Below are positions 9,349 to 61,570 of a DNA stretch of 64,000 nucleotides, in pieces. Under the pieces are notes generated by a model that was not told where the DNA came from, ran no database searches, and saw nothing but the letters and a program-made list of their open reading frames with translations. Origin of the DNA: Eledone cirrhosa (Eukaryota). The translations under genes were made by a program, and so were the position numbers. How positions within the stretch are numbered: position 1 is the stretch's first letter; each line of letters starts with the position of its first letter. The DNA is taken from contig OZ024749.1 of NCBI GenBank assembly GCA_964016885.1, positions 40,052,001 through 40,116,000 on the forward strand, in the 5' to 3' direction.

Positions 9349-9540
9349 TTAATATAGAAATGGCTTCTACAGGACTAGAACCGTTTCATTCGAAGGAAAT
9401 CATCAGGGCTCTCCTGATGATTTCCTTCGAATGAAACAGTTCTAGCCCTGTAGAAGCCATTTCTATATTAAGCATTTAAAAGTTGGTATGCATTGAGTAC
9501 CTTACTTAGTGTGACTGCCCCCTATTGAACCCGGGATAGA
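9349..9540 (+). mobile_element. Family B PLE-like element: 59-bp fold-back palindrome with HHR-like core + tail
   Basis: Arms 9349-9407 and 9413-9471 (2 mismatches); CTGATGA-T-TTC-cttc-GAA-T-GAAAC; tail cattgagtaccttactt...gaacccgggata. Confidence 0.8.
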
Positions 9541-10294: not shown

Positions 10295-10478
10295 AAGTTT
10301 TAATATAGATGAGATTCTACAGGACTAGAACTGTTTCATTCTTTAGAAATCATCAGGAATCGTTCTAAAGAATGAAACAGTTCTAGTCCTGTAGAATCTC
10401 ATCTATATTAAAACTTTTATACTCTGCTATGTATTGAGTACCTTACTTACTGTGGTTACCTCCGATTCAACCCGGAAT
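10295..10478 (+). mobile_element. Family B element with inverted arm
   Basis: Inverted repeat around aatcg; HHR core complete on the minus arm (CTGATGA-T-TTC-taaa-GAA-T-GAAAC); same tail; in (TA)n. Confidence 0.8.
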
Positions 10479-11565: not shown

Positions 11566-11703
11566 ATATCCCGGGTTCAATCGGGGTTAACCACAGGAAG
11601 TAAGGTACCCAATACATAGTCGAGTATATACAAGATTTCATATAGAAACGGCTTCTACAGGACTAGAACTGTTTCATCCGAGGGAAATCATCAGGAAAGC
11701 CCA
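11566..11703 (-). mobile_element. Family B element, minus strand, no inverted arm
   Basis: Minus strand gggctttcCTGATGA-T-TTC-cctc-GGA-T-GAAACagttctagtcc...tattgggtaccttacttcc. Confidence 0.75.
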
Positions 11704-22561: not shown

Positions 22562-22598
<37 letters not shown>

Positions 22599-22646
22599 GT
22601 GTATATGTATATATTTAGTTATGTAATAAACAACATAAGATAATTA

Positions 22647-22706
22647 TTTCATTTACCAGTGGTTTCTTGAAAGCAACCAAAATTGCTTTCATTCATCAGA
22701 ATGAAA
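22647..22706 (-). ncRNA. Type I hammerhead ribozyme (near-canonical)
   Basis: Minus strand UUUCAUU-CUGAUGA-A-UGAAAGCAA-uuuugg-UUGCUUUCA-A-GAA-ACC-acu-GGU-A/AAUGAAA: 7-bp stem I, 9-bp stem II, 3-bp stem III, GUA triplet. Confidence 0.85.
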
Positions 22707-23216
22707 AAATCCTGGTGTCTTTATTGACAGGGGATTTGAAAAACAAAAATATAACAGATATGAAAGTGAGGCTGGGGGAAAAAAGTGGGGGGGGGGATAA
22801 TACGTACACACACACACACTCACATATACACACATATATACATATATATATATACACATATACACGCATATATACGCATATATATACACAGAGACACATA
22901 TACACACACATACACACACACATATACACCTATATATATATACACATATATATATATATATATATACATGCAGACACATACATATATATATATATACATA
23001 TACACATATATATATATACATATATATACACATACATACATACATACATACATACATACACACACACATACACACATATATACACACATGCATACGTACT
23101 CGCATATAAAAGGATACATATGCACACACACAAATAAGAATAAATAATCATAGTAAGCCGTCACATACAAATAAGCAAATAAAAAATAAGGATTAAGAAA
23201 ATAAAAAAAATATATT

Positions 23217-23247
<31 letters not shown>

Positions 23248-23807: not shown

Positions 23808-23876
23808 GTATGTATATATATATATGTATGTATATATATATGTATTATATATATATATATATATGTATATGTATAT

Positions 23877-23936
23877 GTCCAGAAATAGCCGTCGAAACGG
23901 CTTGAGCTCTGACGTCGGGGTTAAACATTTTCCTAT
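23877..23936 (+). mobile_element. Family A head only
   Basis: gtccagaaatagccgtcgaaacggcttgagctc...ggggttaaacattttcctat followed by (TA)n. Confidence 0.7.
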
Positions 23937-57482: not shown

Positions 57483-57512
<30 letters not shown>

Positions 57513-57517
<5 letters not shown>

Positions 57518-57674
57518 AAAATGTTTAACCCTCACGGCAGAGCTCAAGCCGTTTCGACGGCTATTTCTGGACCTTAACGGGGTTAAACATTTTCCTATTA
57601 CCCACTCTATTACCCTAAGTATTGAGTACTCTGGTGCGTTATGGTCCACCTGGTTCCTTACGACATTTCCTTCG

Positions 57675-58000: not shown

Positions 58001-58368
<368 letters not shown>

Positions 58369-59948: not shown

Positions 59949-60165
59949 ATAACGAAGGAAATGTGGTAAGGAACCAGGTGGACCATAACGCACCAAAGTA
60001 CTCAATACTTGAGGTAGTAGAGTGGGTAATAGGAACCAGTAAGACCCCGACAGCTGAGCTCAAGCCGTTTCGACGGCTAATTCTGGACTCAATTATTAGA
60101 ATTAGCTCCAGAATTAGCCGTCGAAACGGCTTGAGCTCAGCTGTCGGGGTCTTACTGGTTCCTAT
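59949..60165 (-). mobile_element. Family A element, minus strand, 59-bp fold-back
   Basis: Arms 60029-60087 and 60107-60165 with a 19-nt spacer. Confidence 0.85.
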
Positions 60166-60811
60166 ATATATATTATATGTATATATATATATAGAGAGAG
60201 ATATATATATATATATATACGTATGTATGTATATTTTAACGAAGTTGCCATTTAGTTGCTTGCGTGTGCTTTTGCAGTATTGGAAGAAGAACAGCGTATA
60301 AAATTAGGGTTGTTGTGATAGGATTGCACAAATGTGCAGCTGCTAGCACTTTGAAGCCATAGAAGTGCAACAGAGCTGAACTATGAGAGCAACAGATTAC
60401 CAAGAGGGGTGAAATGTAGCAGCACGTTTTTGTAGTTTGGCATGTGCATATCTGAAAGTGTTGAATTGCAAGTCTAAAATGCTGCAACACGGCTGCACTA
60501 TATAATTGCAACACTGCGCTGCAATGCTATGAAGAAGTGAAGATAATTAAAAATATTTTTACCTGTATTTAGAGATGTTGGTGTGTGAGGTGCATGCAAA
60601 GATGCAGAGCTGCATAATTGCACTTGTAATCCATCAAGGTGCATTTATTTTCAAGATGAACGGATAACTGAATAGAAGCCATTCAATAGTTATATTTACA
60701 GTATATACACATAAACATACAGGTTACGATAGTGTGATATATATATATATATACAAATACGCACACATACCCACATACACAAACAAAAACAGGCATATAC
60801 ACACATATATA

Positions 60812-61344: not shown

Positions 61345-61570
61345 ACGATGAATAAATATATTAGTTTACGCTTGATATAGTAGGAAAAGTGTCAAAGAGT
61401 CTTGACGTTTCGGACGGTAGTCCTTCATCAGGAAATAAAATGAGAAATTAAAGAAGAAATAGAAAGATAGAAGAGTGGGAAGTGATTGAAAGGAGAAAAA
61501 GATTCTGGAGAAAAAAACAGGTCTATTCAGGTCATAGAAAACTGTTTAATCCAGCGTCGTTATATAAGAA
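61345..61570 (-). mobile_element. Family F PLE pseudo-LTR
   Basis: Homologue of 7220-7372. Confidence 0.7.
61398..61435 (-). ncRNA. Minimal hammerhead motif (PLE type)
   Basis: Minus strand CUGAUGA-A-GGAC-uacc-GUCC-GAAAC-GUC with a self-complementary ACGU in place of stem III. Confidence 0.7.

Follow-up and report, generated by a model that had tools for sequence, protein, structure and literature searches.

Introduction

The G10.1-C11.1 pair is the most conserved pair of hammerhead ribozymes after A15.1-U16.1, yet it is known to vary. Natural U10.1·U11.1 hammerheads, in which stem II starts with a mismatch, have been described (Perreault et al. 2011, PMC3088659); citing Ruffner 1990, the accessible text of that article gives U·U as the most active mispair at 10.1·11.1, with the others cleaving less, and A·A forms no part of the description there. 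In Penelope-like elements (PLEs), minimal hammerheads are located in the pseudo-LTR (pLTR) and have a long helix II and a palindromic helix III, according to the available sections of Cervera and de la Pena 2014 (PMC4209133). They occur mostly as solo motifs from truncated elements and as opposite-strand pairs, and a dimer mode has been proposed for them, with low activity in vitro. These hammerheads conserve G10.1-C11.1 and have one extra base after A9.

For the Hydra clade of PLEs, the parts of Craig et al. 2021 at hand (PMC8557442) describe a single ORF of ~710 aa with a reverse transcriptase (RT) followed by GIY-YIG, the motifs RWK, DKT rather than DKG, CxCx5C, CxxC and CxH, neither an N-terminal GxKF/Y nor a CCHH motif in the endonuclease, and insertion into (TA)n. 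These elements are generally <3 kb in total and have a hammerhead near the 3' end with a palindromic stem III and a frequently unpaired 10.1·11.1. By our own count of the 25 Hydra families in File S2 of that article, 14 have U·U, one U·C, two G·U, seven G-C and one an extra G plus A-U, and a PLE of Chara has C·A; A·A is absent from this table. The Poseidon element PAc of Anolis belongs to a different clade, and its hammerhead overlaps the ORF start. As far as the accessible text of Frangione et al. 2024 goes (PMC11167929), the hammerhead of this element required protein to cleave, and insertion could proceed in vitro without cleavage, insertions being templated on uncut RNA.

Here we describe a hammerhead motif in a stretch of 64,000 nucleotides from Eledone cirrhosa (assembly GCA_964016885.1, contig OZ024749.1, positions 40,052,001 to 40,116,000 of the forward strand), referred to as the window. 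Very probably, this motif is the pLTR hammerhead near the 3' end of a 5'-truncated Hydra-clade PLE in (TA)n, and its A·A opposition at 10.1·11.1 is common to a subfamily and likely inherited from the master element.

The family resembles the Hydra clade, as far as the published description was available, in ORF layout, in the five motifs named above, in (TA)n insertion and in the position, palindromic stem III and frequently unpaired 10.1·11.1 of its hammerhead. It differs in a longer, microsatellite-like 3' UTR (1.4-2.3 kb to the terminal hammerhead), a longer stem II (9-10 bp), A·A, C·A or U-A in place of U·U or G-C, and a second, internal hammerhead in a young sister lineage. Compared by eye and unaligned, the N-terminal ~400 aa of Hydra-1_Obim from octopus share most RT motifs with the present ORF, whereas the hammerhead listed for that element differs in sequence from the one described here. 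The likeness to the minimal PLE hammerheads of PMC4209133 extends, in the text available, to pLTR site, both helices, mostly solo and opposite-strand occurrence and a dimer model with low activity; in the present motif, by contrast, a single base of one strand faces a single base of the other, and G-C is absent. With Poseidon PAc, in the accessible description, the family shares two 3' ends separated by a tail (~70 nt, compared to 30-40 in PAc), AT-rich targets and insertions templated on uncut RNA, while its start codon lies ~220 nt past the cut site.

The hammerhead motif

Inspection of the sequence revealed a type I hammerhead on the minus strand, running from 22706 to 22647, with the following parts:

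22647..22706, minus strand: type I hammerhead motif of the pseudo-LTR (sequence, fold, family alignment)
22706-22700 with 22653-22647, minus strand: stem I, 7 bp
22693..22699, minus strand: catalytic core CUGAUGA (C3-A9); position 7 differs among subfamilies
22692, minus strand: position 10.1, here A; sister subfamilies have C, U or A
22668..22691, minus strand: stem-loop II (22691-22683 with 22676-22668), 9 bp with a 6-nt loop or 10 bp with a 4-nt loop
22667, minus strand: position 11.1, an A; near-invariant in the family (99/100 rows listed), U in two more distant relatives
22666-22663, minus strand: GAAA core (sequence)
22655..22666, minus strand: GAAA core followed by stem III, a palindrome of 4+4 nt with a central C
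22653..22654, minus strand: predicted cleavage site after GUA (hammerhead consensus)

The CUGANGA and GAAA core, an NUH triplet and three stems are all present. The core, stem lengths of 7, 9 and 3 bp, the GUA triplet, the minus strand and a predicted cut between 22654 and 22653 agree with a preliminary description of the window. A descriptor with these stem lengths matched once in the window and in none of 300 shuffled sequences, indicating that the motif is non-random. Stem II consists of nine Watson-Crick pairs and one possible wobble; stem III has 3 bp in the monomer and a predicted 8 bp between two molecules. The G10.1-C11.1 pair is absent from the motif. As natural mispairs are on record, its absence lowers the predicted cleavage rate, not the membership in the class. 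An alternative alignment with an extra base after A9 plus a U10.1-A11.1 pair was dropped, as it left an extra A before G12.

An Rfam search, named as a check in the preliminary description, returned no hammerhead match at E<=10 on this variant. No hammerhead family was among the 10 matches of 22625-22790 at this threshold, and the 150 matches listed of 415 for the whole window were microsatellite-driven and included no hammerhead; Rfam misses the hammerheads of this family. A repeat search of the window was swamped by microsatellites.

The element copy in the window

The motif is part of a copy delimited as follows:

22615..23216, minus strand: 5'-truncated Hydra-clade Penelope-like element copy without ORF (~600-nt alignment to L032 and L110)
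22615..22646, minus strand: element 3' end, ~+38 nt past the predicted cut; the shorter of two family 3' ends
22570..22614, no strand: (TA)n-rich flank, 3' junction (sequence)
23217..23241, no strand: (TA)n flank, 5' junction (sequence)

The aligned loci L032 and L110 are A·A copies with an ORF. The window copy comprises part of the 3' UTR (~510 nt) and the pseudo-LTR and does not have the ~70-nt tail; its 5' boundary is approximate (23216-23229) due to low-complexity UTR sequence. Its last 176 nt are 96-99% identical to the other scored copies, and in a sample biased to close copies it differs by 0.6% from the nearest and by 1.3% from the median sibling. Apart from unrelated repeats, its flanks are not common to other copies. 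No host exon was recognised by eye among the 243 stop-to-stop frames of at least 90 aa in the window, a survey that short exons could escape. As stated in the preliminary description, the motif has no second copy here: no other hammerhead of the family occurs within the window. With neither an ORF nor such a second hammerhead, the window copy is probably inert.

Two origins had been proposed from the sequence of the motif. The data support the first, a pseudo-LTR of another PLE family, which can now be specified as that of a Hydra-clade PLE. For the second, a genomic ribozyme that was retained and acts on a host transcript, no support was found, given the youth of the copy, its family-usual 3' end, its ~510 nt of 3' UTR and its unshared flanks.

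Open reading frames linked to the hammerhead

RT and GIY-YIG coding sequence was found upstream of the A·A hammerhead in the longer copies L032, L040, L110 and L123, at a distance of 1.4 kb in L123 and 1.8 kb in L032. A·A hammerheads flank a complete but frameshifted ORF in L123, which corresponds to a pLTR-ORF-pLTR layout; partial-tandem pseudo-LTRs were observed in L123 and L055-L073. In the eight A·A-linked loci examined, no ORF was intact, all being truncated or broken, and the closest endonuclease matches likewise have broken frames. Based on these results, the A·A subfamily looks spent.

An RT search of the genome revealed many open frames of 713-715 aa. As the A·A-linked frames were broken, the Hydra-clade motifs were scored on the sister lineage with U-A at 10.1·11.1, which is 93% identical to the A·A lineage over the RT piece. 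Among 19 intact U-A ORFs of 713-715 aa, RWK, DKT, CxH and YRDDG were present in all 19, CxCx5C, CxxC and a GIY-YIG-like motif in 18 each, and DKG in none. L032 and L040 also show CxCx5C, CxxC and CxH in their A·A-linked fragments. A match to GxKF occurs in 19/19 sister ORFs; in the L055 protein it is located near residue 500, away from the N-terminus. A Pfam search with two ORF fragments gave nothing significant, and the ORF has 1,339 homologues at E<=1e-20, which are mostly unnamed. Judged by the ORF motifs and the link to the hammerhead, the element is very probably a Hydra-clade EN+ Penelope-like element.

The family in the genome

Using the 176 nt around the motif as query, we obtained 1,071 candidates in the 3.0-Gb genome, of which 40 were scored, giving 41 matches of 96-100% identity with the window included; contrary to the preliminary description, the motif is thus not stand-alone. 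All 30 top loci that were fetched carry A·A, and the core is retained in 28 of them. An exact family pattern that left 10.1, 11.1 and stem-loop II free matched the genome 7,392 times (0 for the reversed control), and 308 of these family hammerheads were matched with A·A fixed. The sequence shared among copies extends upstream through the microsatellite-like UTR and is variably 5'-truncated, with (TA)n at most 3' junctions among the 30 loci. Inverted partner copies are common (pairs L011/L023, L013, L032 and L110). In the A·A rows, the 3' end lies +37 to +42 past the predicted cut in 33/72 and +101 to +109 in 35/72; two clustered 3' ends are a PLE tail signature. The many intact 713-715-aa ORFs of the young U-A lineage have a mean amino-acid distance of 1.9%, and this Penelope-like family is recently or currently active.

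The base opposition at 10.1·11.1

The preliminary description correctly placed A·A at the base of stem II; its further statement that A·A replaces a usual G10.1-C11.1 does not apply to this family, in which G was found at 10.1 in one of 100 listed matches. With the stem-loop II of the window copy in the pattern, there were 193 matches with A10.1·A11.1, one match that differed at 10.1 and three that differed at 11.1; the pattern for the 10.1 variants was shorter than that for the A·A count. Counted by eye among the first 100 of 1,166 matches to a wider pattern, 10.1 was C in 38, U in 35, A in 26 and G in 1, and 11.1 was A in 99. The sister subfamilies have C·A or U-A and almost never G-C; U-A is the form of the intact young lineage, and A·A was found with several types of loop II.

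A tree of 81 of the 160 rows kept was calculated with position 10.1 removed; 32 internal-hammerhead rows had been left out, and a flank filter had removed 18 of 178 terminal rows. In this tree, the bootstrap of which had not converged, the most diverged C·A rows are located at the midpoint root, and 21 of the 27 U10.1 rows fall into one supported group (98/96). Two older, more distant relatives (L186 and G000:C1:6361379) share the 3' flank, have a different stem II and carry U at 11.1, one as C·U and the other as U·U. Public contigs from four sequencing runs of unrecorded type were compared over the 176-nt stretch. In contigs of the same organism, position 10.1 was U in approximately 75-85% and C in 14-19%; single contigs of two further organisms had C.

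As the opposition is shared by the whole subfamily, A·A was likely inherited from the master element of that subfamily, judging from the copies compared. There was no recent loss of a G-C pair; the family has been mostly unpaired at 10.1·11.1. A search of open-access text, figures being outside its reach, returned nothing relevant on A·A at this position. A·A is a minor variant, absent from the table of File S2, and affects a position whose variation and tolerance of mismatches were known before.

Conservation, folding and predicted cleavage

Between subfamily majorities, 0/10 columns differ in the core, a conservation partly built in by pattern-based sampling. The corresponding numbers are 0/8 in stem III, 1/14 in stem I (to a wobble), 7/18 in stem II, 6/6 in loop II, 20/63 in the 5' flank and 5/32 in the 3' flank. 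Subfamilies differ at position 7, as is usual in hammerheads. A core-free pattern gave 6,961 matches; by eye, the core is intact in 85 of 100 listed, and the rest have scattered changes. Stem-loop II displays compensatory changes between subfamilies. In 43 rows chosen from 89 distinct sequences, two-sided change in stem II affected 27 cells, compared to 8.7 after shuffling; the events are few and concern 5 pairs, a number reached in 129 of 500 shuffles. The retention of core and stems between subfamilies, together with stem II covariation, points to probable selection on the master elements for a functional ribozyme, likely weak and acting as a dimer, and the pattern of changes suggests that the master lineage probably kept a working fold through mispaired stages. 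The conservation reflects selection on the lineage, not specifically at the A·A stage.

For the 60-mer, the hammerhead fold was calculated at -13.1 kcal/mol and a core-burying hairpin at -13.4; with A10.1, the hairpin formed over the core reaches 8 bp. As U·U is the mispair with the highest reported activity, the A·A form is predicted to be a weaker cutter, and it likely cuts weakly if at all. The ribozyme of the master element would work as thought for PLE hammerheads, as a dimer via the palindromic stem III, perhaps aided by the element's protein. Slow processing of tandem transcripts would leave uncut RNA, reaching 38 to 109 nt past the cut, as RT template. Copies do keep 38-109 nt beyond the cut, which argues for element templates that were uncut or rejoined at the cut site and fits the in vitro result for Poseidon. 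Near the predicted cut site, 154 5' junctions were counted, 1.4-fold the 108 of a control position located 5 nt upstream, and no genomic footprint of cleavage emerged from this comparison. Thirty junctions were inspected; they were mainly inverted-copy junctions and small deletions or duplications, and none continued into the ORF start.

Alternative explanations

The A·A hammerhead might also be catalytically dead, the subfamily having spread without cleavage and died out while the U-A lineage took over. We consider this possible, if doubtful. It would agree with the poorer cleavage of mispairs other than U·U (accessible text of PMC3088659), with the hairpin that A10.1 completes over the core, with PAc insertion in vitro that did not need cleavage (PMC11167929, in the part available), and with the low share of A·A (308 of 7,392 matches), for which the eight linked loci hold no intact ORF. 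However, the folding penalty is no peculiarity of A·A: with flanks, its hammerhead fold lies 4.2 kcal/mol above the ensemble energy, and the value for the young U-A lineage is similar at 3.9 kcal/mol. C·A mispairs, moreover, lasted through the older, most diverged subfamilies with the core fixed and stem II covaried, and the several loop types found with A·A imply that amplification took place more than once with this opposition in place.

A domesticated ribozyme that cuts a minus-strand host transcript at this single locus is highly improbable. Core and stems are intact, and the motif could cut if it were transcribed and paired in trans with other RNA of the family; the copy is so young, however (0.6% to the nearest sampled sibling), that selection is not required to explain its intact core, which 28 of the 30 top copies have too, and the frames of the window surveyed by eye held no recognisable host exon. 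Equally remote is a non-autonomous retrozyme, i.e. a short tandem hammerhead unit spreading as circular RNA. A type I hammerhead with a palindromic stem III would suit such an element, and animal retrozymes have been proposed to derive from PLE pLTRs (bioRxiv 10.64898/2026.07.22.740005, in the text accessible), but the locus has a single motif and no tandem unit, and copies are variably 5'-truncated. The long 3' UTR upstream, which leads to an ORF in longer copies, largely refutes this explanation.

Other hammerhead motifs and use of the family

A second, internal hammerhead is located in the 3' UTR of the young U-A lineage (L055-L073), about 290-460 nt past the ORF stop. A strict pattern detected it in 16 of the 19 intact-ORF loci, ~1.4-1.8 kb before the terminal one, and it folds less well than the latter. 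None was found in the eight A·A-linked loci. The internal hammerhead could be a built-in dimer partner.

Truncated retroelement ends number in the thousands, and as one of them the locus is of little import. The family is mildly useful for studying the role of hammerheads in PLEs, as it provides matched natural variants (C·A, A·A and U-A) and one or two hammerheads per element beside many intact, near-identical ORFs that could be assayed. Speculatively, and with little probability in our estimate, these variants may represent natural steps in a series of alleles of a ribozyme tuned to low activity. At the foot of stem II, the bases would have stayed unpaired for most of the history of the lineage (C·U to C·A to A·A, with 11.1 fixed as A), slow cleavage leaving uncut template, before the young, dominant lineage closed the pair as U-A and gained the internal 3' UTR hammerhead as a possible dimer partner. 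If cleavage rate tracks those steps and copy number, the family would directly test the purpose of PLE hammerheads.

Hammerheads of two subfamilies were observed in direct tandem at L123:5771 and 5951 (180 nt apart) and at L107:870 and 1622 (752 nt apart). These tandems reflect later insertion into an earlier pLTR end, and mixed dimers are conceivable in principle. In L060, L062, L063 and L068, other hammerhead families, some with G10.1-C11.1 and some with U·U, adjoin copies of the present element, which suggests shared (TA)n targets. A different hammerhead family with U·U at the base of a short stem II occurs in the window at 9349-9471, 10318-10356 and 11656-11694, two of its copies forming a near-perfect inverted pair at 9349-9471. 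Further cores resembling minimal hammerheads lie in the window at 61431 and 7299 (minus strand); they have an additional A following A9, and their stem II is closed by G-C. Another abundant repeat, which contains an internal palindrome, is represented by short fragments at 23870-23920, 57500-57570, 58200-58280 and 59950-60170; this repeat is often found at (TA)n adjoining copies of the present PLE.
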